Below the pieces are notes generated by a model. That model worked only from the letters and a program-made list of their open reading frames with translations, was not told the origin of the DNA and did no database searches. Shown piece by piece: positions 18,483 to 39,837 of a DNA stretch of 64,000 bases (the first letter of the stretch is position 1; each line of letters begins with the position of its first letter). The DNA is taken from IMG/VR virus record IMGVR_UViG_3300019458_000024, positions 1 through 64,000 of that record; one strand, 5' to 3'. This DNA comes from a virus. Made by a program: the position numbers and the translations under genes.

Positions 18483-19532
18483 TTGGAATACCTATTTGTT
18501 AAAAATCTTCTTTTAGAACTTTTAAAACTCCTCTCATTACGTAATTGGGAAACCAAATTTACGCACAATGATGTAAAAGAAATTCTAAAATGTGAAGAAC
18601 CTACATGTGGTCTTGTTGTATCCTTAGGTGTGGAAAAAGGGTACTTTGAATTACAATTTCAAGACTACGTAATAACAAAAAATGGTAAGAGTGTAGGCGC
18701 TCAAATGAGCATGTGTATGACACCTTTACCTACATGTAAAAGTGACGTAAGTGTTGAAAAAGACTCAAAAGATTTTTTGGGTCCTACCCTCAAAGCGACA
18801 GCTTTCTCAATTTCTAGTGTTCTAAACAATGATCTCAAGGATCAAATAGATCTTAGAGATCTAGGTATTTCTACAATTACTAGTAATACGGTGTCGCGTG
18901 CGCGTGCGCGCGTGAACGTAAATAACCTTAAAATAGCTAAAAAAGAAGAAGAAGTGAAATCCATTCTCTCAGGAGAGACTGCATCAGGAGATGATGAAAC
19001 TGCGAAGTGTTGGTTAATGGCAAAAGTTTATGAACAACAACTTCGTGAGTATAGAAACAAACCGTATATGGTGTTCTTTAAGAAATCTGAGTTGTCCCGT
19101 CAGACAAAAACAGTGCTTAAACGAGCCTGTGCCTTTGCAGATGAACTTGGTGTAGATTTCACGACATATGTTCGAGCGCAGTTTTGGTGGTTTGATACCA
19201 ACTTCTCACAGGCTCCTGAACTTCATTACCTTGCCTCCAGTAGGTCCAAGTTCAATGCCAAGGAGCGCGTGAAGGTATTCTTGCAGGAAGCCTCTACAAC
19301 GCAGCTAATGAAGCCTGTGAGGAGCAGAGAGATGGTTCCTCCAAAATGGAATAACTCAGCTAAATTTGATCAGTGTGATGTGGTGTTGAAGCGTATGATG
19401 ACTAACTATAAACTAACCGAAGAAGAAGTGTTTAAAGCTTTTAAGGGGCACAGTATTGATTTGTTCTTTGATTCTGCGTGGTTAAAGCAGAATGAAACAT
19501 ATAAACGACTTAGAGCAGCGGGCGAGGTTTAA
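18483..19532 (+). CDS. Putative replication initiator/DNA-binding protein
   Basis: N-terminal wHTH-like segment; central low-complexity linker with SRARARV; first gene of the replication cluster. Confidence 0.4.
   Translation: MEYLFVKNLLLELLKLLSLRNWETKFTHNDVKEILKCEEPTCGLVVSLGVEKGYFELQFQDYVITKNGKSVGAQMSMCMTPLPTCKSDVSVEKDSKDFLGPTLKATAFSISSVLNNDLKDQIDLRDLGISTITSNTVSRARARVNVNNLKIAKKEEEVKSILSGETASGDDETAKCWLMAKVYEQQLREYRNKPYMVFFKKSELSRQTKTVLKRACAFADELGVDFTTYVRAQFWWFDTNFSQAPELHYLASSRSKFNAKERVKVFLQEASTTQLMKPVRSREMVPPKWNNSAKFDQCDVVLKRMMTNYKLTEEEVFKAFKGHSIDLFFDSAWLKQNETYKRLRAAGEV
18831..18914. repeat. Four GATC at 9-nt spacing plus a 20-nt alternating purine/pyrimidine tract
   Basis: GATC at 18831, 18840, 18849, 18858; CGCGTGCGCGTGCGCGCGTG at 18895-18914. 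Confidence 0.6.
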
Positions 19533-19536
19533 ATCT

Positions 19537-22500
19537 ATGTCAGATAATAAGTCGGGCGGTCTATTCGCGTCCGGTGTGGATTACGTTCGTGAAGGTTCGG
19601 CTGTTTATGTAGGTGAGCCTTCTCCATTGTCTGATGATTTTGTTCCTAGCGGAGAGAATCCTAAACTAAAGATTAATGAAAACTTTACTTTAGGACAATC
19701 TGACCCATTCAAAAGTGTTGAATGGGAATTTCGAGACGTAGTTCTCACCAACCCACAGACAGGGGAAGAGGTTTTTAGTGGAAAGAATCTGGAATTTCCC
19801 AAAACTTGGTCACAGAACGCGGCCACGATTGTAGCTGAAAAGTATTTCAGATTCGTTCTGCAGGATGACGGTACGAAGGTTAAAGAGATATCTGTAAAGC
19901 AGATGATTTCAAGGGTCGCTAGTACTATTGCACGTTGGGGGCAAATTGGCGGCTACCTCAGTGAGATTGGCGCTCGAAAGTTTTATAATGAATTGTCTTA
20001 TATTCTTGTGAACCAAATAGCTGCGTTCAACAGTCCGGTTTGGTTCAATATTGGAACTAATAAAGGGCTGCCTCAAACAGAAGCAGCTTCAGCATGTTTT
20101 ATTGTTTCTTTGCAAGATACTATGGAATCGATTCTTGAGCTGGCTAAGACTGAAGGTACTCTTTACAAAGGCGGATCAGGCTCTGGGGTGAATTACTCAA
20201 ATCTTAGATCATCTCGTGAGAAATTGAGTGTTGGAGGAACTTCCTCTGGTCCTGTTCCTTTTATGTTGAAAGATGATTTCAATGCAGGTGCTGTGCGCAG
20301 TGGAGGTACGTGCCTAGCTCCCTACCAGAGGGTATATACCGCTGAAGGGCCCGTGGCTGTAGAAGAACTTGCTAAACTGGAAAGCTTTATTGTTTTGAGT
20401 TTTGATCCTCCTGCAGGTCGTTACAAAGCCAAGAAGGCGCGTGCGTGGAAAGCTGGTAGAAAGAATGTAGTTAAGATTGTTACTGATAAGGGTGAATTTC
20501 ACGTAACTGATGACCATCCTATTAAACTGTCGTCAGCAAACTTTGTGAAAGCGGGCGACCTAACACCAGGTTTGTCTTTATTTGCTTGTTGTATTGACGA
20601 CCGGGCCGGTTATGTTCGTGTTAATTTGCGAAATGGTCGAAAAGGTAAGGAGTTTTTCCATAGATTGATAGCTTCCGATGTTGGTGGGTATGATATAGAC
20701 AATCTTGTTGTGCATCACAAGGACCACAACAAAATCAACAACGCACTTTCAAATCTTGAGGTGATGACACAATCTTCGCACGCCTTTCAACACAATAAAG
20801 AACTAGTAGATGTGGGAGACCATGTATTCCAGCGTAGATCATTTCCAAAGGCTGGTCGTGCAAATGGTATGCACAGCAGTTCTGCGTTCTGGGACTCTCC
20901 GGAAAAATTAACTGCCTATCGATCACGTTTAGCCGCTGCTATTAAGCCTCACGCACGAGAAATGCAAAAAGCAGCTGGTCAACAACGCATGATGAACACC
21001 GCGTATACACTACTTAATGCTGGGTGTGCAATTGATACATTTGAGCAATATGTGGTGAGTAGAAAGCAGATTTTAGGACGTATTAGTAGTGTTTCCAAAT
21101 TAAGGAAAATGCTTAACCATAGATTTGATAATTACGATAATTTTCTCAAAGAAGTAAATGCTAACAATCACCGTGTAATCAGTGTTGTTCGTGTAGGAGA
21201 GATGGACGTTTATGACGTTGAGGTTGAGTGCCCCACGCTAGATGACAAAAGCCCAATGACCGGGCACAATTTCGTTATCTGGTGTGACGATTCCAATTTT
21301 GGCTCTGGTGTTGTTGTAGCAAACACACGCAGAGCGGCAAAAATGACAATTCTAAATATAGACCATGGAGATATTTTAGAATTCATTCAATGCAAAGCTA
21401 AAGGGGAGGAAGTAGCACATGCTCTGATTGATTCCGGTAAATTTTCTGGAGACTTCAGAGACCGCTGGGGTGCTTATGCTATTGCTCCATTTCAAAACGC
21501 CAATCACTCAGTACGTGTGACTGATGAATTCATGAAGGCTGTTGAGAATGACGATACTTGGAATCTACTAGCCAGGGACGGCACTGCGTTGCAGATTGTT
21601 AAAGCACGCACTCTGTGGGATGAGATTTGTAAGGCTGCTTGGTTTTGCGGTGATCCTGGTTTGCAGTTTGATACTACAATTAATAAATGGCACACCAGTC
21701 CAGCTAGTGGACGAATTAGCGGATCAAACCCGTGTTGTCTGACTGGTGATACGCTAGTTGAGACTTCTGAGGGGCGGATTCGAATTGATAAGCTGGTTGA
21801 TATGTATAATGCGGGTGAGAAACTACCGCAAGCATTTGCTTGGGATGAGTCTGCAAACCTTCCCGTGCTGCGTCCCATAACCAAGGCGTGGAAAGCTGGG
21901 GACACTACTTCGCTTGTTATTGTCACAACCGACAAGGGCGCGACAATCAAGTGTACACCCGAACACAAGTTTTTGTTGCGTAACGGTTCGTGGGTTCAAG
22001 CTTGTGATTTGAATCCTGGAATGCGGCTACGTAAAATAGGACGTTGGGCCAATGAACAGCGGTCTGATCGTTGGCACATCAATCACAAAACAACCATGTC
22101 CGCCCCAAATGGAACTTCTATCCAAGCCCGATGGATGTGGGAACAAGCTAACGGACCAATACCTCCGGGCTATGCCATCCATCATTTAAACGGTGACCCC
22201 ACTGATGATCGACTTTCAAATCTAGAGATGATAACGCGTTTTGAGCACGCAAGTGGCCACGCAAGCGGTGCTGAAAATTCTCGCTTCATGGAAGTGCGCC
22301 CAGAAGTGTTGGTAGAAATTTACGAGGAGATTGAAGCTACTCCAAAACGGACCCATAAAAATGGTATTGCGGTTACGCCGGCCCGATGGAATAGCTTCAT
22401 AAAGAGAAGAGGGCTTATTGGAAAGGTGCCAATGGCACAGAGTCCGTCCACAGGTGGACGTATACAAGGTATGGCTTGGAGCCAATTTGTTGAGTTCATT

Positions 22501-24243
22501 GAAGACCACCGTGGCGATGTTAATGACTGTGTAGTGTCTGTATCTAGAGACGACCGCACAGACTCTACATGTTGGGCTGTGTATGATTTAGAGATTGAAG
22601 GTGTTCATAATTTTTCCGTCGGTACGCAAGGCGTGGACCACGGGATTATTGTTCACAACTCAGAATACATGTTTCTGGATGATTCAAGCTGCAACTTAGC
22701 GTCGATCAACTTGCTCAAGTTTTTGCGTTCCGATGGGATGTTTGATGTTGATGGTTACCTTCACACGATTGACGTATTGATTACGGCAATGGAAATTCTT
22801 GTTGGATATGCAAAATATCCGACTAAGAAAATTGAGGAGAATAGCCACAATTTCCGCCCTCTAGGTCTGGGCTACACTAACCTCGGGGCTTTGCTGATGT
22901 CTCAAGGAATGGCTTACGACAGTGTTGAAGGTCGTACACAAGCGGCATTGTTAGCTTCAATCCTTACTGGTCGCGCGTATCGCCGTAGTGCTGAAATAGC
23001 CTCAGTAGTTGGTCCTTTCGAAGATTATGATGTCAATCGTGCTTCCATGTTGAATGTTATGAATATGCATCTCAATTCTATGAATGCAGTATCTGCCCGG
23101 ACGGACCAAGAGTCTTTGTTGGAAAATACTGCTAAAAACGCTTGGAAAGAGTGTATTTCTCTGGGCAACAAATATGGTTATAGAAATGCACAAGCAAGTG
23201 TGATGGCACCTACTGGAACTATTGCTTTTTTAATGGACTGCGACACCACTGGCATTGAACCTGATTTATCGTTAAATAAAACGAAAAAACTCGTTGGTGG
23301 TGGGACAATGAAGATTGTAAATAAACAAGTTGAACCAGCTTTGAAGGCTTTTCGCTATTCAGACTCTGATATTACAAGTATTTTGACCAAGATTAGGGAA
23401 ACCGGGTCCGCCGCTAATTCTCCTTTATTGGAGTGTCACCAAAATGTGTTTGCGACAAGTTTTCCAGATCCGGTGAGTGGTAGATTCATTAGACCTGAAG
23501 CGCATGTTCTCATGATGGCGGCTATCCAACCATTCGTCAGTGGCGCTCTATCCAAGACAGTCAATATGTCAAACACAGCTACTGTGGAAGACATTGGCAA
23601 AGTATATATGGAGGCTTGGAAGCTTGGCCTCAAAGCTATTGCTTTATACAGAGATGGCTGCAAGCGCACACAACCGTTGTCTGTTGAGAACGCTGTTGTA
23701 GAGTCTGAAACAGCGCCAGAACCTTTGCAAGTTCGTAGGAAATTACCCAACGACTGTGTAGCGCACAGGCACCATTTTAAAATCAGTCAACACGCAGGAT
23801 ATCTGCATATCGGGCTGTATCCAGATGGAAAACCTGGAGAACTTTTTATTCAAATGGCCAAAGAAGGTTCCACCGTGTCTGGTTTGATGGATGCAATTGG
23901 GGTTCTTACGTCTATTGCGCTGCAGTATGGAGTTCCTCTTGACGTATTGGTGGAAAAATTCTCTTACACTCAATTTGAGCCGGCCGGCATGACTAGTAAT
24001 GAGGATATAAAGTTCGCGCAAAGTCCTCTAGACTATATTTTCAGATTCCTTGGCTCTCAGTTTTCAGTTGAAGAAAATCCAACTGTTGAAGTAAAAGACT
24101 TGTCAAAAAGTGACGATACACGTATAAAAAGTGTGCTTAACGGCGCTTATGGTCAAGTATGTACTAATTGCGGCAATGGAATGCAGCGCGCCGGATCTTG
24201 CCTAACGTGTTCAACCTGTGGTAATACATCAGGATGTGGTTAA
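19537..24243 (+). CDS. nrdJ: Class II (B12-dependent) ribonucleotide reductase with two inteins
   Basis: FNSPVWFN, SACF, GSGSGVNYS, TRRAAKM, NPC/SE, CNLASINL, RPLGLG, MAPTGT, SKTVNM; C-terminal TSCPD-like domain and Zn ribbon. Confidence 0.92.
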   Translation: MSDNKSGGLFASGVDYVREGSAVYVGEPSPLSDDFVPSGENPKLKINENFTLGQSDPFKSVEWEFRDVVLTNPQTGEEVFSGKNLEFPKTWSQNAATIVAEKYFRFVLQDDGTKVKEISVKQMISRVASTIARWGQIGGYLSEIGARKFYNELSYILVNQIAAFNSPVWFNIGTNKGLPQTEAASACFIVSLQDTMESILELAKTEGTLYKGGSGSGVNYSNLRSSREKLSVGGTSSGPVPFMLKDDFNAGAVRSGGTCLAPYQRVYTAEGPVAVEELAKLESFIVLSFDPPAGRYKAKKARAWKAGRKNVVKIVTDKGEFHVTDDHPIKLSSANFVKAGDLTPGLSLFACCIDDRAGYVRVNLRNGRKGKEFFHRLIASDVGGYDIDNLVVHHKDHNKINNALSNLEVMTQSSHAFQHNKELVDVGDHVFQRRSFPKAGRANGMHSSSAFWDSPEKLTAYRSRLAAAIKPHAREMQKAAGQQRMMNTAYTLLNAGCAIDTFEQYVVSRKQILGRISSVSKLRKMLNHRFDNYDNFLKEVNANNHRVISVVRVGEMDVYDVEVECPTLDDKSPMTGHNFVIWCDDSNFGSGVVVANTRRAAKMTILNIDHGDILEFIQCKAKGEEVAHALIDSGKFSGDFRDRWGAYAIAPFQNANHSVRVTDEFMKAVENDDTWNLLARDGTALQIVKARTLWDEICKAAWFCGDPGLQFDTTINKWHTSPASGRISGSNPCCLTGDTLVETSEGRIRIDKLVDMYNAGEKLPQAFAWDESANLPVLRPITKAWKAGDTTSLVIVTTDKGATIKCTPEHKFLLRNGSWVQACDLNPGMRLRKIGRWANEQRSDRWHINHKTTMSAPNGTSIQARWMWEQANGPIPPGYAIHHLNGDPTDDRLSNLEMITRFEHASGHASGAENSRFMEVRPEVLVEIYEEIEATPKRTHKNGIAVTPARWNSFIKRRGLIGKVPMAQSPSTGGRIQGMAWSQFVEFIEDHRGDVNDCVVSVSRDDRTDSTCWAVYDLEIEGVHNFSVGTQGVDHGIIVHNSEYMFLDDSSCNLASINLLKFLRSDGMFDVDGYLHTIDVLITAMEILVGYAKYPTKKIEENSHNFRPLGLGYTNLGALLMSQGMAYDSVEGRTQAALLASILTGRAYRRSAEIASVVGPFEDYDVNRASMLNVMNMHLNSMNAVSARTDQESLLENTAKNAWKECISLGNKYGYRNAQASVMAPTGTIAFLMDCDTTGIEPDLSLNKTKKLVGGGTMKIVNKQVEPALKAFRYSDSDITSILTKIRETGSAANSPLLECHQNVFATSFPDPVSGRFIRPEAHVLMMAAIQPFVSGALSKTVNMSNTATVEDIGKVYMEAWKLGLKAIALYRDGCKRTQPLSVENAVVESETAPEPLQVRRKLPNDCVAHRHHFKISQHAGYLHIGLYPDGKPGELFIQMAKEGSTVSGLMDAIGVLTSIALQYGVPLDVLVEKFSYTQFEPAGMTSNEDIKFAQSPLDYIFRFLGSQFSVEENPTVEVKDLSKSDDTRIKSVLNGAYGQVCTNCGNGMQRAGSCLTCSTCGNTSGCG
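20311..21324 (+). mobile_element. Intein 1 in NrdJ (338 aa) with HNH endonuclease
   Basis: GGT|CLAPYQ...TDDH...HRLIA..VVHHKDHNKINNALSNL...VYDVEV..HNF..VVAN|TRRAA. Confidence 0.88.
21736..22659 (+). mobile_element. Intein 2 in NrdJ (308 aa) with HNH endonuclease
   Basis: NPC|CLTGDT...TPEH...IHHLNGDPTDDRLSNL...VYDLEIEGVHNF..IIVHN|SEY. Confidence 0.9.
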
Positions 24244-33646: not shown

Positions 33647-34740
33647 GAATAGTTCTCTTCAGTGACTTGCATTGTCATCCATTTCAGCCTTACGCGACTA
33701 TATTAGCTAATGGTATGAATTCAAGGTTGGCTGATGCTATTAGTTGCATAGACCAGATAGTGGCGTACTGTGCTGATCCAAATAATCACGTAGATTTGGT
33801 TTTATTCGGCGGTGATTTGTTCCATGTTCGCAAGAACATTTCTGTAGCTGCGTTCAATGAAGTGTACGCTGCTCTGTCACAATTTGCTGCGAACGACATT
33901 CCACTGGTTTTGATACACGGTAATCATGATCAAGCCAGTAAGGACGGCAGTGTTAATAGTATAAAGACGTTTCACAGTATGGCTCACGTTATTGAACGTC
34001 CAGGATGGTTGGAATTACGAGGTCGGTGGGGAGACCCATATTCCATTCTCGGCGTTCCATACACGGAAAACATTGAACACCTAAAAGATATTGTAAACAT
34101 TCCTAACCCAGAGCCACTAGCTCCTAGCATATTGCTAGCTCATTTAGGTGTGCAAGGCGCTAAGGTAGGGGCTGATTTTGTGTATGCCACTCCGTACGAC
34201 GCCAAAGTAGAAGACCTGAACTGTGGAGCGTTTGACCGTGTTTATCTTGGTCATTATCACATGCACCAACAACTGGCGTCGAATGCTTGGTACATCGGAG
34301 CGCCACTGCAACACAACTGGGGTGACAAACATCAGTGGAGAGGTTTTTTGGTATATAATACTGACACCAAGAGTCATGAGAAAGTTGATTTGAAGTCACC
34401 AAAGTTTGTTGAAATTGATAATACCTCATTAAATATGGATACCTCACTGTATAGTGATGATTTCGTAAAAATTGTAGATTCTTCTACCGACAGTTGGTCA
34501 AAAACACGTATTGAGGAAGAAAGGATTAGGTTAGGCGCTAGATCACTAGAAATAGTGGTGAGGGAGAAAAACAGTGCACCTTTTGTCCCTAGATTAGATA
34601 TTTCAACTAACACATCCTTTAAAGACGCCATGGAAAAATATGTTAGGTCTGGTTTGTCTTCCGTTGAAGGGTTGGACGAGTCATATTTGTTGCAAATTGG
34701 AAATGAGATCTTGGAAGAAGTAGAAAATGGAGAAAAATGA
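33634..34740 (+). CDS. SbcD/Mre11-like nuclease (gp47-like)
   Basis: SDLH, GGDLFH, GNHD, LAH, LGHYH. Confidence 0.85.
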   Translation: MGRLRIVLFSDLHCHPFQPYATILANGMNSRLADAISCIDQIVAYCADPNNHVDLVLFGGDLFHVRKNISVAAFNEVYAALSQFAANDIPLVLIHGNHDQASKDGSVNSIKTFHSMAHVIERPGWLELRGRWGDPYSILGVPYTENIEHLKDIVNIPNPEPLAPSILLAHLGVQGAKVGADFVYATPYDAKVEDLNCGAFDRVYLGHYHMHQQLASNAWYIGAPLQHNWGDKHQWRGFLVYNTDTKSHEKVDLKSPKFVEIDNTSLNMDTSLYSDDFVKIVDSSTDSWSKTRIEEERIRLGARSLEIVVREKNSAPFVPRLDISTNTSFKDAMEKYVRSGLSSVEGLDESYLLQIGNEILEEVENGEK

Positions 34741-35726
34741 TGGGCATCCGATTAAATTTGGAGAATCAAAAATTTGGATATCTTACTGTACTGCGTGATG
34801 CAGGGAGAGCTTCTTCTGGCGCCGTCAAGTGGATGTGTCAATGTGATTGTGGCAAGAAAAAAGTCGTCGCCTCTGATTCTTTGAGAAGCGGAAGAGTATA
34901 CCATTGTGGCTGTCAGGGCCGACGTGCTTTGCATGATTTAGAGTTAATTGGAAAACAGTTTGGAAGACTGACGGTACGTTCGAAACAGGGTTACGAAAAG
35001 AAAAGCCAAGCGCTCTGGAACTGTGTTTGTAGTTGTGGTAAAGAGGTAGTCGTGCGTGGAGGAAATCTAGTTTCCAGTAACACGCGTAGTTGTGGTTGTG
35101 CTATAGCATTCAAACACGGAATGAGTCGTACGTCTGAGTATATGATCTGGTCTGGTATCAAAGCTCGCTGCTTTAATAAAAATAATTCGGCATATTCCTA
35201 TTATGGCGGTCGTGGAATTACGATGCACGATCCTTGGATAAATGATTTCATGAAATTTTTTGAATATGTTGGAAAACGTCCTGGGCCTGAGTATTCTATA
35301 GATAGAATTAACTCAGACGGTAATTATGCACCAGGAAATGTTAGATGGGTGACAGACGGTGAGCAAATGATTAATAGAAAAGCCAGGGGAACGACATTTA
35401 ATTACTATCAAAATAATACGAAAAAGACGGCTATTTATCCAAAAGAAGACCCGTTCGTTGCTATAGTTTATTGTGCGCTAGGTTTGTCCTCGGAAGCAGG
35501 TGAGATCGCGAGCAAGATAAAAAAATGCATGAGGGATAATGAGGGGATAATAGATCGAGAAGTCAAAAATTCGTTGATTGGTGAGATTGGTGATTGTTTT
35601 TGGTATTTAAGTGAATTGTCATCCAACTTGGGAGTGTCCTTAGACTACGCCGCTAAGAAAAATTTGAGCAAGTTGATGGGAAGAAAAGAGCGCGGTACAT
35701 TGAAAGGTAGCGGCGATAATCGTTAG
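34737..35726 (+). CDS. HNH homing endonuclease fused to a MazG-like NTP pyrophosphohydrolase
   Basis: Two FGxLTV/CxCG repeats plus YGGRGI..SIDRINSDGNY; then TFNYYQ..TAIYP..LGLSSEAGE..EIGDCFWY..GSGDNR. Confidence 0.8.
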   Translation: MMGIRLNLENQKFGYLTVLRDAGRASSGAVKWMCQCDCGKKKVVASDSLRSGRVYHCGCQGRRALHDLELIGKQFGRLTVRSKQGYEKKSQALWNCVCSCGKEVVVRGGNLVSSNTRSCGCAIAFKHGMSRTSEYMIWSGIKARCFNKNNSAYSYYGGRGITMHDPWINDFMKFFEYVGKRPGPEYSIDRINSDGNYAPGNVRWVTDGEQMINRKARGTTFNYYQNNTKKTAIYPKEDPFVAIVYCALGLSSEAGEIASKIKKCMRDNEGIIDREVKNSLIGEIGDCFWYLSELSSNLGVSLDYAAKKNLSKLMGRKERGTLKGSGDNR

Positions 35727-35751
35727 TTAGTCAATTTAAGGGGGTGGTACA

Positions 35752-37914
35752 GTGTCTTGGCAGGTTATTAAAAGTGACTGTTTATCAGCATTAAAAACGT
35801 TTAATGATGAGTCTGTTCATTCTATTATTACTGATCCTCCATACGGACTAGGCTCTGAGCCTACTCCTGAACAATTAATTGCGTTTATCAGCGGGGATGA
35901 CGTTCGACTCAATGATAAAGATTTCATGGGCAAGGATTGGTCAATTCCTTCTGTGGCTGTTTGGAAGGAATGCTTTCGCGTATTGAAGCCAGGGGGACAT
36001 TTGCTAGTATTCGGTGGAAGTCGCACGTTTGATCTCATGTCTCTTGGTATTCGTACGGCTGGATTTGAATACCGAGACACGGTTATGTGGATCTATGGTT
36101 GTTTGTCAGAAGACACAGAAATACTTGTAGATGGAGAATGGGTACCTTACTTCAAAGCAGTAAAAGGTAGGCACGCACTTTGTTATGATAGAGAATCTAA
36201 TAGTTATTCGTGGGAAAAAATCAACAATTTGTACGTGTATGAATACAACGATATCGCGTACAAAATTACGTCAGATAGTACAGACCAACTCGTCACCAAA
36301 AACCATCGCTGCTTGGTTGAACAAAACGGAAACTTTGAATTCAAAGAAGCGTGGGAAGCTGCACTGGACGCAGAAACACGCGTACCCGTTTTGGAAGGTT
36401 TGTCAGAATTGCTTAACTGTATTCCCCTGCCGGACAAACGAGCAGGCTTTGAGGAAAAGGGCGTGCTCGACACTATGTGCGGGCCGCTTAATTTCAAAAG
36501 CAAGGAAAGGGAAATACAGAACCCTAGTAAGAGTTTGTGTAATTTGCAAGAAATCCTACCGTGCGTACATCAGCAAGAAACGAGCCTCGAACAGAAAATT
36601 CTGCAGCAACAGGTGCAGAATAATCTGGAGGAAAAAGAATCCACACTTATGGGATCACCTTTACAAGGTGGGGCATCTGGGCAGAAGCGGATGGACAGCG
36701 GAATCAATGGCGTCTTACAAATTAAAAATGAGTGGCAGCAAAAACCCTGCATGGAAGGGAGGGATTACGAAGTTGAAAGCCAGAGGCAATTACAAGAATG
36801 TTGTTTTGGTTCGGTGTCCGCCGGAGTTTCACAAGATGGCTCAACAGAACGGGTATGTATTGGAGCACAGGTTAATAGTAGCAAAACAGATCAAAAGAGT
36901 ATTGACACAAAAAGAAGTTGTTCACCACATGGATCACAATCCGCAAAACAATGCAGCTACGAATTTAGCATTGTTCAAGACAAACAAAGATCACAAACTG
37001 TTCGAGCATCATGGAAGACCGCTGCCTCTCTGGCAAGGTTCGAAGAAATAGAATACTCAGGCATTGTTTGGTGCATATCAGTTCCTACGGGTGCTTTTGT
37101 AGCAAGACGAAATGGTAAGATATTTGTTACAGGTAATTCAGGATTCAATAAGGGAGGAGATATCTCGAAAAAGATTGATAAATCCCTCGGTGTAGAACCT
37201 ACAGTTATCGGAGAAAATCCTAATCACAGGCCGCTGTCCGGCGTTAGTTATGAAGGAATTTATGCTGGTGGCAATACTGGAAGCAAGTATGTTACTGCGG
37301 CTACTAGTGATGAGGCAAAGGTGTGGGAAGGTTGGGGCGTATCGATTAAGCCAGCTCACGAGCCGATAGTCATGGCAAGAAAACCATTCAAGGGAGCATT
37401 ATTTAAAAATGTGTTGAAGCACGGCACCGGTGCAGTGAACATTGATGCCTGTAGAATTCCAACAGAAGACAAACTGACAAGAAAACTGGGAAAAACGACA
37501 GAATCAGATGCCGGCTGGAAATCCGTCAATCGATCAGAAATTGCAGGAAAAGATGGTGGTAGAGTGCCTGCAAATGTAATCCTTGACGAAGAGGTTGGAG
37601 AGATTTTAGACTCTCAAGAATCTAAATCTAAGCCTGCCCGTTTTTTTTACTGCGCCAAAGCTTCAAAGTCTGAAAAGAATGAGGCTGGGCCTAATAATCA
37701 TCCAACAGTGAAGCCGGTAGATTTGATGCAGTGGCTGGTTAGACTAGTTACTCCTCCTGGTGGTGTGATATTGGATCCGTACGCAGGTAGTGGCACTACT
37801 GGGGTAGCTGCGGTTTCCGAAGGTTTTTCCTTTATAGGAATAGAAAAGTGCCAAGAGTATGTTGACATTGCAAGACAGCGAATTGAGCATATTGAATTCG
37901 AGAATCGCGAATAG
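35752..37914 (+). CDS. Beta-class N6A/N4C DNA methyltransferase with intein
   Basis: TDPPY, LKPGG, KPAHEP, HPTVKP, LDPYAGSGTT; spliced product about 374 aa. Confidence 0.88.
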   Translation: MSWQVIKSDCLSALKTFNDESVHSIITDPPYGLGSEPTPEQLIAFISGDDVRLNDKDFMGKDWSIPSVAVWKECFRVLKPGGHLLVFGGSRTFDLMSLGIRTAGFEYRDTVMWIYGCLSEDTEILVDGEWVPYFKAVKGRHALCYDRESNSYSWEKINNLYVYEYNDIAYKITSDSTDQLVTKNHRCLVEQNGNFEFKEAWEAALDAETRVPVLEGLSELLNCIPLPDKRAGFEEKGVLDTMCGPLNFKSKEREIQNPSKSLCNLQEILPCVHQQETSLEQKILQQQVQNNLEEKESTLMGSPLQGGASGQKRMDSGINGVLQIKNEWQQKPCMEGRDYEVESQRQLQECCFGSVSAGVSQDGSTERVCIGAQVNSSKTDQKSIDTKRSCSPHGSQSAKQCSYEFSIVQDKQRSQTVRASWKTAASLARFEEIEYSGIVWCISVPTGAFVARRNGKIFVTGNSGFNKGGDISKKIDKSLGVEPTVIGENPNHRPLSGVSYEGIYAGGNTGSKYVTAATSDEAKVWEGWGVSIKPAHEPIVMARKPFKGALFKNVLKHGTGAVNIDACRIPTEDKLTRKLGKTTESDAGWKSVNRSEIAGKDGGRVPANVILDEEVGEILDSQESKSKPARFFYCAKASKSEKNEAGPNNHPTVKPVDLMQWLVRLVTPPGGVILDPYAGSGTTGVAAVSEGFSFIGIEKCQEYVDIARQRIEHIEFENRE
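36100..37137 (+). mobile_element. Intein in MTase (346 aa)
   Basis: WIYG|CLSEDTEIL...TKNH...YSGIVWCISVPTGAFVARRNGKIFVTGN|SGF. Confidence 0.88.
36185..37051 (+). CDS. HNH endonuclease overprinted in the +1 frame inside the MTase intein
   Basis: CQNC..ACSTLC, CVIC..FCSNRC, KNPAWKGG, GYVLEHRL..EVVHHMDHNPQNN..NL..H; true start uncertain. Confidence 0.8.
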   Translation: MIENLIVIRGKKSTICTCMNTTISRTKLRQIVQTNSSPKTIAAWLNKTETLNSKKRGKLHWTQKHAYPFWKVCQNCLTVFPCRTNEQALRKRACSTLCAGRLISKARKGKYRTLVRVCVICKKSYRAYISKKRASNRKFCSNRCRIIWRKKNPHLWDHLYKVGHLGRSGWTAESMASYKLKMSGSKNPAWKGGITKLKARGNYKNVVLVRCPPEFHKMAQQNGYVLEHRLIVAKQIKRVLTQKEVVHHMDHNPQNNAATNLALFKTNKDHKLFEHHGRPLPLWQGSKK

Positions 37915-37917
37915 CAA

Positions 37918-39837
37918 ATGAGATTCCTTTCGGTAGAAATTCAAAATTTCATGTCGTATGGAGAGCCAGCACAGACTCTCCGTTTGGAAGACTTGGGTTT
38001 GGTATCTATTGTAGGTATTAACAAGGACGCGTTGGGTGCTTGTTCAAATGGTTCCGGAAAGTCTTCTATCATGGAAGCGATTGTATGGACATTGTATGGA
38101 CAGACAATGCGTGGTTACAAGGGGGACGAAGTAGTCAATAGAACAAACAAGGAGAACTGTTTTGTTAGACTGGCCTTGGAAGAAAATAACTCACTATATG
38201 AAATCAAGAGAACCAGAAAAGTTAATCAAAAACGTTCTAATGATTTGTGCTTGTTTATAGACGGTGTAGATGCTTCGCAAGGAACCGTAGCAGACACACA
38301 AGCAACTATTCAAACTATCATTGGTATGGATTTTTGTACATTTACGCAAAGTGTGATGATGTGGCACGGTACGCAACCCTTCAGTAAAATGACAGATAAA
38401 GAGCAAAAAGAGGTCCTGGAAGACATACTTCAAATAGACCAGCTCGCTAAGGCCAAAGATATTGTTAAGAATAAAATTTCTAAGGGACAAGAAAGTCTAA
38501 AAAATCTGACAAATAGAGTGTTGTTTTTAGACGCGACAATAGAAGATCTTTCCTTGTCTATTTCCAAACTGTCTTCACAAGACTCTCAATACGCTGAAAC
38601 AATCAAACAAAGACGTATTGCGCTGTTAACTAAAAAAGTAGATACGGAACTAAAAATAAATGAATTATATAAAAACACCGGGCTCGACAAACTAATTAAA
38701 ATTAGAGAAAATATAAGTAGTAAATTAGAGGTTATAGGCAATAGCCGAAGACATGTACAAACTGAAAAGCTTATTGTTGCCCGTTCGTTTGCTGAAAAAA
38801 AAGCTGCCTTATCAAAAAGAGAAGGCGTGGTCCAAGGAAGGATCATACAACTCCAAGAGGATATCAAAGCATTTAACACCCTCGCTGGGAAAGTATGTCC
38901 AACGTGCAAGCAAGAGTTCCACGTTGAGACAGCTTCATCCTGCATGGACATCTGGGCTAAAGAAGCCGAACGGCTACGATCACAAGAGATTGGCCCCATC
39001 GTCAACGCGCAAGAGGCTCTCCACGGAGACGAGCAATCTGAACTCAGTGCATTGGCGATTGAAGAAAGCCGTATCAATCAGGAAATTGGAACGGCCCAAG
39101 CCGAGCTGCAAAGCGCGGATGATAACGTCCGTAAAAGGAAGGCCACGCTTCAAGTTGTCTGTGAGTTGGAGCACCAGGCTCTTGGAATCCAAAAAGAACT
39201 CAACCAGCTTGACGAAGAGAAAAATCCGTATTCCGGCCTCATTGAGGAGAGTAGGAAAAAGCGAGACGACTGCGAAGGAGAGCGAAGATCCCTTACCTGC
39301 AAGATTGATTCTCTTTCTTTTGAATTAAGCCACCTAGAATACTGGAATCACGGTTTTGGTAATAGCGGATTAAAGTCTTACATACTCGATAATGTAGTTC
39401 CTTTTCTTACAGAAAAAGCGCAAGAATATGCTGATATAGTATCTGGAGGGGATATCAGGTTGGAGTTTTCTACGCAAACAAAGCTGAAATCTGGAGAGAT
39501 GAAGGACAGCTTTCAAGTCAAGGCTGTTAATCTAAAAGGCGCAGATGTTTATCACGGAAATTCTGATGGAGAACGCAGACGTATAGATATTGCCGTTGGT
39601 TGGGCTTTGGCAGACCTAGCAGCGACAAGAGCTAAAAAACCTATATATTTTAGAGGTTTAGATGAGCCTTTTGAACACTTAGATACTGTTGGCGAAGATT
39701 TGGTAATAAAATTACTTCACAAAGTTTTGCCAAGGTATGAAACTGTAATGTGTGTCACACATAGTGCACACCTAAGAGATCAATTTCCGAAGGAGGTTGT
39801 GGTAACATTTAAGAATGGATTTTCGAAAATTTCGTAG
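37918..39837 (+). CDS. SbcC/Rad50-like ATPase (gp46-like)
   Basis: QNFMSY, NGSGKSS, coiled coil with CPTC hook, variant signature NSDGE, LDEPF, VTH. Confidence 0.88.
   Translation: MRFLSVEIQNFMSYGEPAQTLRLEDLGLVSIVGINKDALGACSNGSGKSSIMEAIVWTLYGQTMRGYKGDEVVNRTNKENCFVRLALEENNSLYEIKRTRKVNQKRSNDLCLFIDGVDASQGTVADTQATIQTIIGMDFCTFTQSVMMWHGTQPFSKMTDKEQKEVLEDILQIDQLAKAKDIVKNKISKGQESLKNLTNRVLFLDATIEDLSLSISKLSSQDSQYAETIKQRRIALLTKKVDTELKINELYKNTGLDKLIKIRENISSKLEVIGNSRRHVQTEKLIVARSFAEKKAALSKREGVVQGRIIQLQEDIKAFNTLAGKVCPTCKQEFHVETASSCMDIWAKEAERLRSQEIGPIVNAQEALHGDEQSELSALAIEESRINQEIGTAQAELQSADDNVRKRKATLQVVCELEHQALGIQKELNQLDEEKNPYSGLIEESRKKRDDCEGERRSLTCKIDSLSFELSHLEYWNHGFGNSGLKSYILDNVVPFLTEKAQEYADIVSGGDIRLEFSTQTKLKSGEMKDSFQVKAVNLKGADVYHGNSDGERRRIDIAVGWALADLAATRAKKPIYFRGLDEPFEHLDTVGEDLVIKLLHKVLPRYETVMCVTHSAHLRDQFPKEVVVTFKNGFSKIS

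Follow-up and report, generated by a model that had tools for sequence, protein, structure and literature searches.

The window analysed here is a stretch of viral DNA of 64,000 nucleotides, which forms the first part of a single 162,637-base contig carrying phage replication and packaging genes. Its positions 35752..37914 (+) hold an open reading frame of 720 aa for an N6/N4 DNA methyltransferase (PF01555, E 2e-34), into which 346 codons without a stop are inserted at WIYG|SGF. The N-extein (35752..36099, +; 116 aa) has a GTG start and a DPPY motif, ends in WIYG and is 73% identical to the intein-less protein P0143. The C-extein (37138..37914, +) begins with Ser+1 and contains the DPYAGSG motif. 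Read in the host frame, the insert (36100..37137, +; 346 aa) is an intein running from Cys1 to Thr-Gly-Asn before Ser. It consists of an N-terminal splicing domain with blocks A and B (36100..36396, +; block-B His of the TKNH motif at 36304), a linker (36397..37000, +) and a C-terminal splicing domain with blocks F and G (37054..37137, +).

The marks of a class 1 intein (C1, TKNH, N346 and S+1) are all present. Thus, the full, stop-free intein with Cys1, TKNH and TGN before Ser, which a first-pass annotation had read from the sequence, is confirmed. The block-B histidine, H69, is invariant in 38 aligned inteins. A penultimate His is common in class 1 inteins, if not universal; here the penultimate residue is Gly, as in 91 of the 91 distinct loci described below, and the published ShiLan-type intein has the same ending, Gly before the terminal Asn. 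A profile of the intein family matches the solved AceL NrdHF intein 6zgq (E 3.5e-9) over the N-terminal part only. The Pfam model Intein_splicing is matched by 3 of 38 family members, below the cut-off, and the window intein goes unrecognised by Pfam (E 0.038). A group I intron was also considered and rejected, since the region 35500-38200 gave no Rfam match up to E 1, and since the host frame is open and selected at both ends.

A nuclease gene in the +1 frame

The same DNA is open in the +1 frame from 36164 onwards and encodes an HNH nuclease of 270 aa (36239..37051, +; 813 nt), with a likely start at ATG 36239 and a TAG stop at 37049-37051. A further ATG at 36185 would give a product of 288 aa. 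The first-pass annotation had proposed this longer frame (36185..37051), which is indeed present, but 36239 is the likelier start. The product contains two Cys4 clusters, C55/58/76/80 and C100/103/122/126 (36401..36616, +), a putative zinc-binding DNA-recognition region whose eight Cys are invariant among 54 aligned HNH proteins. They are followed by an NPAWKGG motif and the HNH catalytic core with H229, H230, N238, N242 and H252 (36743..36994, +). PHROG HNH families match the protein at E 1.5e-15, in line with the earlier identification of an HNH nuclease with two Cys4 motifs. HNH_3 is matched at E 8e-5, under the Pfam cut-off, and the ESM Atlas gives HNH_3 clusters at 0.95-0.96 for the nuclease.

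An AlphaFold2 model of the 270-aa product, based on the 54-sequence alignment, has a mean pLDDT of 89 and a pTM of 0.51, and predicts N-terminal helices at residues 7-15 and 20-37 with a pLDDT of 94-98. The best fold match of the catalytic core, a weak one (Z 5.7, rmsd 3.5, 73 residues), is the intron-encoded HNH homing nuclease I-HmuI (PDB 1u3e), in which the Cys4 region and the N-terminal helices of the window nuclease are unmatched. Foldseek with the nuclease model against the PDB returned nothing at E 0.001, a PDB sequence search using the +1 alignment nothing below E 0.05, and an Atlas search with the N-terminal 52 residues no usable match. The +1 product is a putative HNH homing endonuclease, which likely spreads the intein.

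Conservation of the layout and selection by frame

A scan of viral contigs with the window intein as a single sequence found nothing, and alignments were therefore needed for the family search. The intein region matches 1119 of 5908 candidate proteins. In the best 120 of these 1119 matches, 98-100% of the host-frame intein aligns, its junk centre included, at 37-45% identity (the query aside), and all 120 end in TGN|SG. An HNH alignment search detected at least 527 HNH relatives among 600 viral stretches. Of the 80 that were kept, this intein houses 52 at +1 and an intein-less methylase 26, likewise at +1; the other 2 are free-standing.

A set of 80 intein loci, 78 from the search and two annotated records, shares one insertion site. 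It comprises 71 inteins with a +1 HNH, 3 mini-inteins and 6 with an in-frame LAGLIDADG-like centre, ShiLan gp65 being one of the six. Pooling this set with 34 loci from genome contigs, followed by de-duplication, resulted in 91 distinct loci with intein and HNH. In all 91, which are related to each other and do not count as independent, the HNH is at +1, the host frame is free of stops, and Cys1, Gly-Asn and Ser+1 are found; no HNH is in frame or at +2. The +1 frame, which the first-pass annotation had required to be conserved or expressed if its reading was to stand, is kept throughout. We rejected the reading as a canonical bifunctional intein on the same counts (nuclease in frame in 0/91 loci, at +1 in 91/91). 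Two odd loci were also seen. L163:2212-3375 has an intact intein and +1 HNH, with unrelated sequence in place of the C-terminal splicing domain and the C-extein; it is probably a truncated copy. The mini-intein L132:2516-2947 shares the insertion site, and its codon 7 is an in-frame stop; it comes from either a dead gene or a recoded phage. Annotation takes the inteins of this family for degenerate, and a large family of nucleases thereby becomes invisible.

The absence of host-frame stops is far beyond chance. Redrawing the codons of the window HNH protein at constant amino-acid sequence predicts 17.6 host-frame stops over 200 codons, and not one of 20,000 draws was free of stops, a stronger result than the 3e-5 which the first-pass annotation had estimated for the open overlap. 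Frame-specific selection was analyzed in 86 representatives at under 95% identity. Over the HNH they show 0 host-frame stops versus 1057 expected, and 918 versus 705 expected in the control +2 frame; a stop falls within the analysed HNH stretch in 2 of the 86. Variability peaks at the host-frame third position (1.6-1.7 bits) throughout the exteins and splicing ends; within the HNH core the peak moves to the third position of the HNH codons (1.2-1.66 bits versus 0.5-0.7).

We calculated dN/dS by the Nei-Gojobori method for 9 disjoint pairs; all 26 pairs show the same pattern. The values for the host and the +1 frame, to be read knowing that dual coding itself slows substitution, are 0.18/1.23 for the first 45 intein codons, 0.31/0.59 for the block-B region, 1.51/0.24 for the Cys4 region, 2.01/0.12 for the HNH core and 0.07/2.27 for the C-terminal splicing domain. 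Selection acts on the splicing ends through the host frame and on the nuclease through the +1 frame. This is what had been predicted from the window, namely purifying selection at +1 (0.12 in the HNH core) and mere stop avoidance in the host frame (2.0), and the proposed composite selfish element, intein ends plus a +1 nuclease, is supported. Because of these frame-specific values we consider the linker, with a host-frame dN/dS of 1.5-2.0, to be a by-product of the HNH frame that is kept stop-free. No amino-acid selection on the linker was seen in its hydropathy, which does not differ from a fairer null introduced after a first one had proved biased (47 of 84 loci above null). A slight acidic excess over the null in 71 of 84 loci may reflect dinucleotide bias.

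At +1, a host-frame stop consists of an HNH wobble T followed by AA, AG or GA, and changing this T to C is always silent. The overlap would be cheap, because every host-frame stop opens with a wobble T of the nuclease and can be purged silently. In 84 loci, wobble T occurs before AA, AG or GA in 0 of 4173 cases, versus 2585 of 10,317 elsewhere. The same purge is seen in 29 intein-free inserts (0 stops observed versus 235 expected). A literature search did not find wobble-T purging of host-frame stops at +1 in print.

A segment over block B selected in both frames

The first-pass annotation had described the central intein codons under the nuclease as meaningless-looking. This picture holds for the linker, but not for about 50 codons of the splicing domain, which are constrained in both frames: positions 36239..36396 (+) encode block B in the host frame and a predicted two-helix N-terminus of the HNH protein at +1. 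The +1 frame of the family is open from about 36236, 50 codons ahead of the first Cys, across block B. In the 86 loci, +1 stops across the block-B segment number 6 versus 149 expected; they are not depleted in the first 45 codons (185 versus 155) or the last 29 (92 versus 89.5 expected). In 82 of the 86 loci, which we term the overlap type, the +1 frame is open across block B, and +1 stops interrupt this segment in 6 of the 9 inteins of the mini- and LAGLIDADG types. Both readings of the roughly 50 block-B codons are under selection. A literature search, with most subscription journals outside its reach, did not find such two-frame selection over block B in print.

One relative of the nuclease appears to carry this extension outside any intein. 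L037 is a free-standing HNH protein that adjoins a helicase-like gene. It scores 35.6 bits against a position-specific profile (PSSM) of the extension, where shuffles average -9.3 (SD 3.8; 0/3000 as high), the next best of 44 non-intein HNH ORFs reaches 4.6 bits, and the +1 readings of mini- and LAGLIDADG inteins range from -11 to 6.6 bits. By this PSSM test, and as a single case, L037 is predicted to retain the segment. A plain HMM of the extension gave only E 0.096 with L037, nhmmer found no match between its DNA and the intein DNA, and a block-B fossil in its shifted frame is visible by eye and not significant by HMM.

Block B is common to unrelated inteins, and three of the four HNH inteins without overlap group with the LAGLIDADG type (99/91) and start just past block B. 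From these two observations we infer that the extension arose by overprinting. We lean, if only slightly, towards the reading that an HNH start about 28 codons further upstream created a new segment over block B, that this predicted two-helix N-terminus came under selection and that it was kept in the escaped L037. Three mini-inteins branch at separate places inside the overlap type, and their +1 signature is gone, as a loss of the nuclease would lead one to expect. Moreover, a +1 HNH cassette already purged of host-frame stops may move between spliced and unspliced housing. At L084:2516-3433 the splicing domain groups with the overlap type and the HNH, which does not overlap block B, with the intein-free inserts (96/91); the locus is a candidate for the capture of a splice-free cassette by an intein. 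The block-B overlap lends itself to studying how a folded segment can arise de novo over the active site of an enzyme, and the interest of the finding rises if the overprinted segment proves functional.

Expression, mobility and relation to known systems

We assign a probability of roughly 0.78 to the reading that the locus is a phage methyltransferase intein with a separate HNH gene at +1, for which splicing, a start codon of its own and homing are likely. The 720-aa precursor would splice by the standard Cys1/Asn/Ser+1 route to yield a methylase of 374 aa, and the excised intein would take the junk linker with it. Ribosomes initiating at ATG 36239 would produce the 270-aa nuclease, which would nick or cut empty alleles close to the codons for YG|SGFPK; the whole intein would then be copied in during repair.

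ATG or GTG is found at the 36239 position in 47 of 86 loci (30 expected); a Shine-Dalgarno match as strong as -6 kcal/mol or stronger accompanies 30 of the 47, compared to 211 of 1230 other +1 ATG/GTG codons. Upstream of the conserved segment, 79 of 82 loci have an ATG or GTG (65 expected). Moreover, a +1 stop lies no more than 6 codons upstream in 14 loci, and every one of these carries an ATG at the 36239 position or two codons earlier. No single start is universal, however, because 39 of 86 loci are without ATG/GTG at the 36239 position (18 have ACG) and yet keep the catalytic residues. These 39, in which the frame also stays open, could be explained if, in some lineages at least, ribosomes translating the methylase frame entered the nuclease frame shortly ahead of block B, by a +1 frameshift or by re-initiation. 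The same applies to the 3 of 82 loci that have no ATG/GTG in the open stretch, and to the window, whose ATG 36239 has no Shine-Dalgarno match (+0.8 kcal/mol). We nevertheless regard this route as unlikely in view of the excess of start codons, the 14 tightly bounded loci, the Shine-Dalgarno enrichment at the common start and the finding of no conserved RNA structure there in 30 aligned loci, chosen among the ATG-bearing ones. A local hairpin at 36228..36264, which covers ATG 36239 in the folded strand, is not significant versus shuffles and not conserved, and no sense-strand match to a sigma-70 promoter was found. The first-pass annotation had named internal initiation and frameshifting side by side; these counts favour separate initiation, likely at 36239, and disfavour the frameshift.

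It is also conceivable, though improbable, that the layout is real and the nuclease of this particular copy is poorly expressed or decaying, so that the intein only splices. The window HNH sits on a long terminal branch, neither ATG 36239 nor ATG 36185 has a Shine-Dalgarno match, and the three separately nested mini-inteins show that HNH loss happens. Against this, the window frame is intact with its eight Cys and the catalytic His and Asn, and by the same crude measure a strong Shine-Dalgarno match is found in fewer than half of the long ORFs of this genome (35/76).

A nuclease that is expressed and spreads the intein, as we prefer to read the locus, fits the distribution of alleles. Among 73 methylase loci, 60 of the 61 insertion sites found are empty, and P0143, the best relative of the N-side extein among short proteins (73% and 64% identical), is an empty allele. 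All 15 pairs whose intein DNA is 83-99% identical, pairs which were picked by intein similarity and overlap each other, have both exteins less similar than the intein, and in the closest pairs identity steps up at the intein junctions. Some pairs with near-identical N-exteins hold distant inteins, in one case with 93% identity in the N-extein and 64% in the intein. The pattern fits homing; in 10 pairs, no co-conversion tract was clearly one-sided. The step at the junctions, the predominance of empty sites and the weak fold match to the homing nuclease I-HmuI all argue against a domesticated partner of the methylase, restriction-like or aimed at competitors, that would not home to this site. 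We hold this to be very improbable, even if the HNH family is tied to the methylase family within the intein, in the next loop and, at L174:981-3067 of a Curtobacterium plasmid record, directly downstream of an uninterrupted methyltransferase gene. Finally, two compensating sequencing errors that shift an ordinary in-frame HNH out of frame, which the first-pass annotation had named as a possible refutation, are excluded because the 91 distinct loci, from many samples, share the +1 phase with none in frame, and the best 120 proteins align over practically the whole host-frame intein, even though the window rests on one assembly. The one public run with this stretch (single contig, depth 209, no indel), beside which no RNA data set was listed, is the probable source of this DNA and thus not an independent confirmation.

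In the 29 intein-free +1 inserts, wherever the motifs were found, the HNH lies between SGFPK and the LKP motif, a site that is distinct from that of the ShiLan domain. A literature search did not find this HNH family at +1 without an intein in the next methylase loop in print. In a quick tree, all 40 intein HNHs that were sampled fall into one branch (98), together with 27 of the 29 intein-free and 3 free-standing HNHs. The trees interleave intein and intein-free forms, but a single intein clade is compatible with the AU tests (p 0.66; p 0.48), and we therefore claim no order of swaps between them. A more distant HNH was seen at +1 at another site, near the C-terminus of a different methyltransferase without an intein (L185:1746-2261). 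The canonical, mini-, out-of-frame and splice-free forms, all located at this one site or next to it, provide a natural series on the gain and loss of nucleases by inteins.

Inteins with a nuclease in another frame or strand have been described (Gosselin et al., bioRxiv 10.1101/2025.01.02.630785), as has an out-of-frame LAGLIDADG nuclease, with two-frame dN/dS, in a cyanobacterial dnaX intein (Phillips et al., bioRxiv 10.64898/2026.09.14.751524). The general kind, an out-of-frame nuclease inside an intein, is already published, and the novelty implied by the first-pass annotation does not stand; in the accessible parts of this literature, a nuclease start inside the splicing domain was not found. 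As far as the accessible text of Gosselin et al. goes, their actinophage inteins, like those analysed here, are full inteins that leave the host frame open and carry the nuclease ORF out of frame on the same strand. They reside, however, in DNA polymerase, minor capsid, terminase and thymidylate synthase genes instead of a methyltransferase, and their nuclease is EndoVII-like and in frame 3, not an HNH with Cys4 clusters at +1. Moreover, their second ORF typically lies outside the splicing domain, whereas here it overlaps block B (82/86). The dnaX intein of Phillips et al. shares the disordered host-frame centre, the separate ORF with a Shine-Dalgarno motif, the dN/dS flip and the presence of full, mini- and empty alleles. 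It differs in its LAGLIDADG nuclease, its chromosomal dnaX host and the position of the ORF between the splicing domains; which shift its label "+2 ORF" means is ambiguous.

The ShiLan domain is a splice-free HNH in a methylase (Arsenault et al. 2025, PMC11855218). According to the parts of that paper available to us, it is likewise an out-of-frame HNH in the same phage methylase family with a stop-free host frame, but it has no splicing domain, is shifted by +2 and is inserted after the TALKP motif. Its HNH is distantly related to that of the window (24% over 181 aa, E 5e-9). The window insert was rejected as a ShiLan domain, since it has a splicing domain, a +1 and not a +2 shift and a different site. 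Closer analogues of the ShiLan domain are the 29 inserts at +1 that have no intein, of which nearly all occupy a different site. A canonical intein of this methylase family is known from the mycobacteriophages ShiLan, Bobi and Dorothy (Gosselin et al. 2023, PMC9957025). In the portion of that work we could consult, it has the same site, YG|SGFPK, and the same ends as the window intein, and the splicing domains are related (58-79% over the last 28-45 aa). Its centre, in contrast, is in frame, with LAGLIDADG-like motifs seen by eye and no Pfam match, where the window has an out-of-frame HNH. A +1 HNH in a methylase intein was not found in print by a literature search that left most subscription journals outside its reach. 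With its ORF in another frame, its contiguous stop-free intein and its purifying selection, the window insert belongs with the inteins that have an out-of-frame nuclease.

Several further features of this genome were noted. Upstream of the methyltransferase, at 34737..35726 (+), one reading frame joins an HNH endonuclease (PHROG 374, residues 68-230) and a MazG-like pyrophosphatase (212-329), and an ATG at 35367 could start the MazG-like part alone. Inside an SbcC-like gene, 38738..39325 (+) is an open +1 frame of 196 codons, probably a by-product of codon bias. On G000:C1, three more intein-like inserts lie near 92616, 102726 and 150260 (+), one short and two with in-frame centres; up to 1.1 kb from their ends, no other frame of the same strand holds a long ORF. 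An HNH match lies at 143575-143730. Finally, the ribonucleotide reductase at 19492..24243 (+) contains at least one canonical intein, with an end near 22660, and two in-frame HNH domains (about 371-429 and 880-920), so that the same phage uses both in-frame and out-of-frame HNH inteins.
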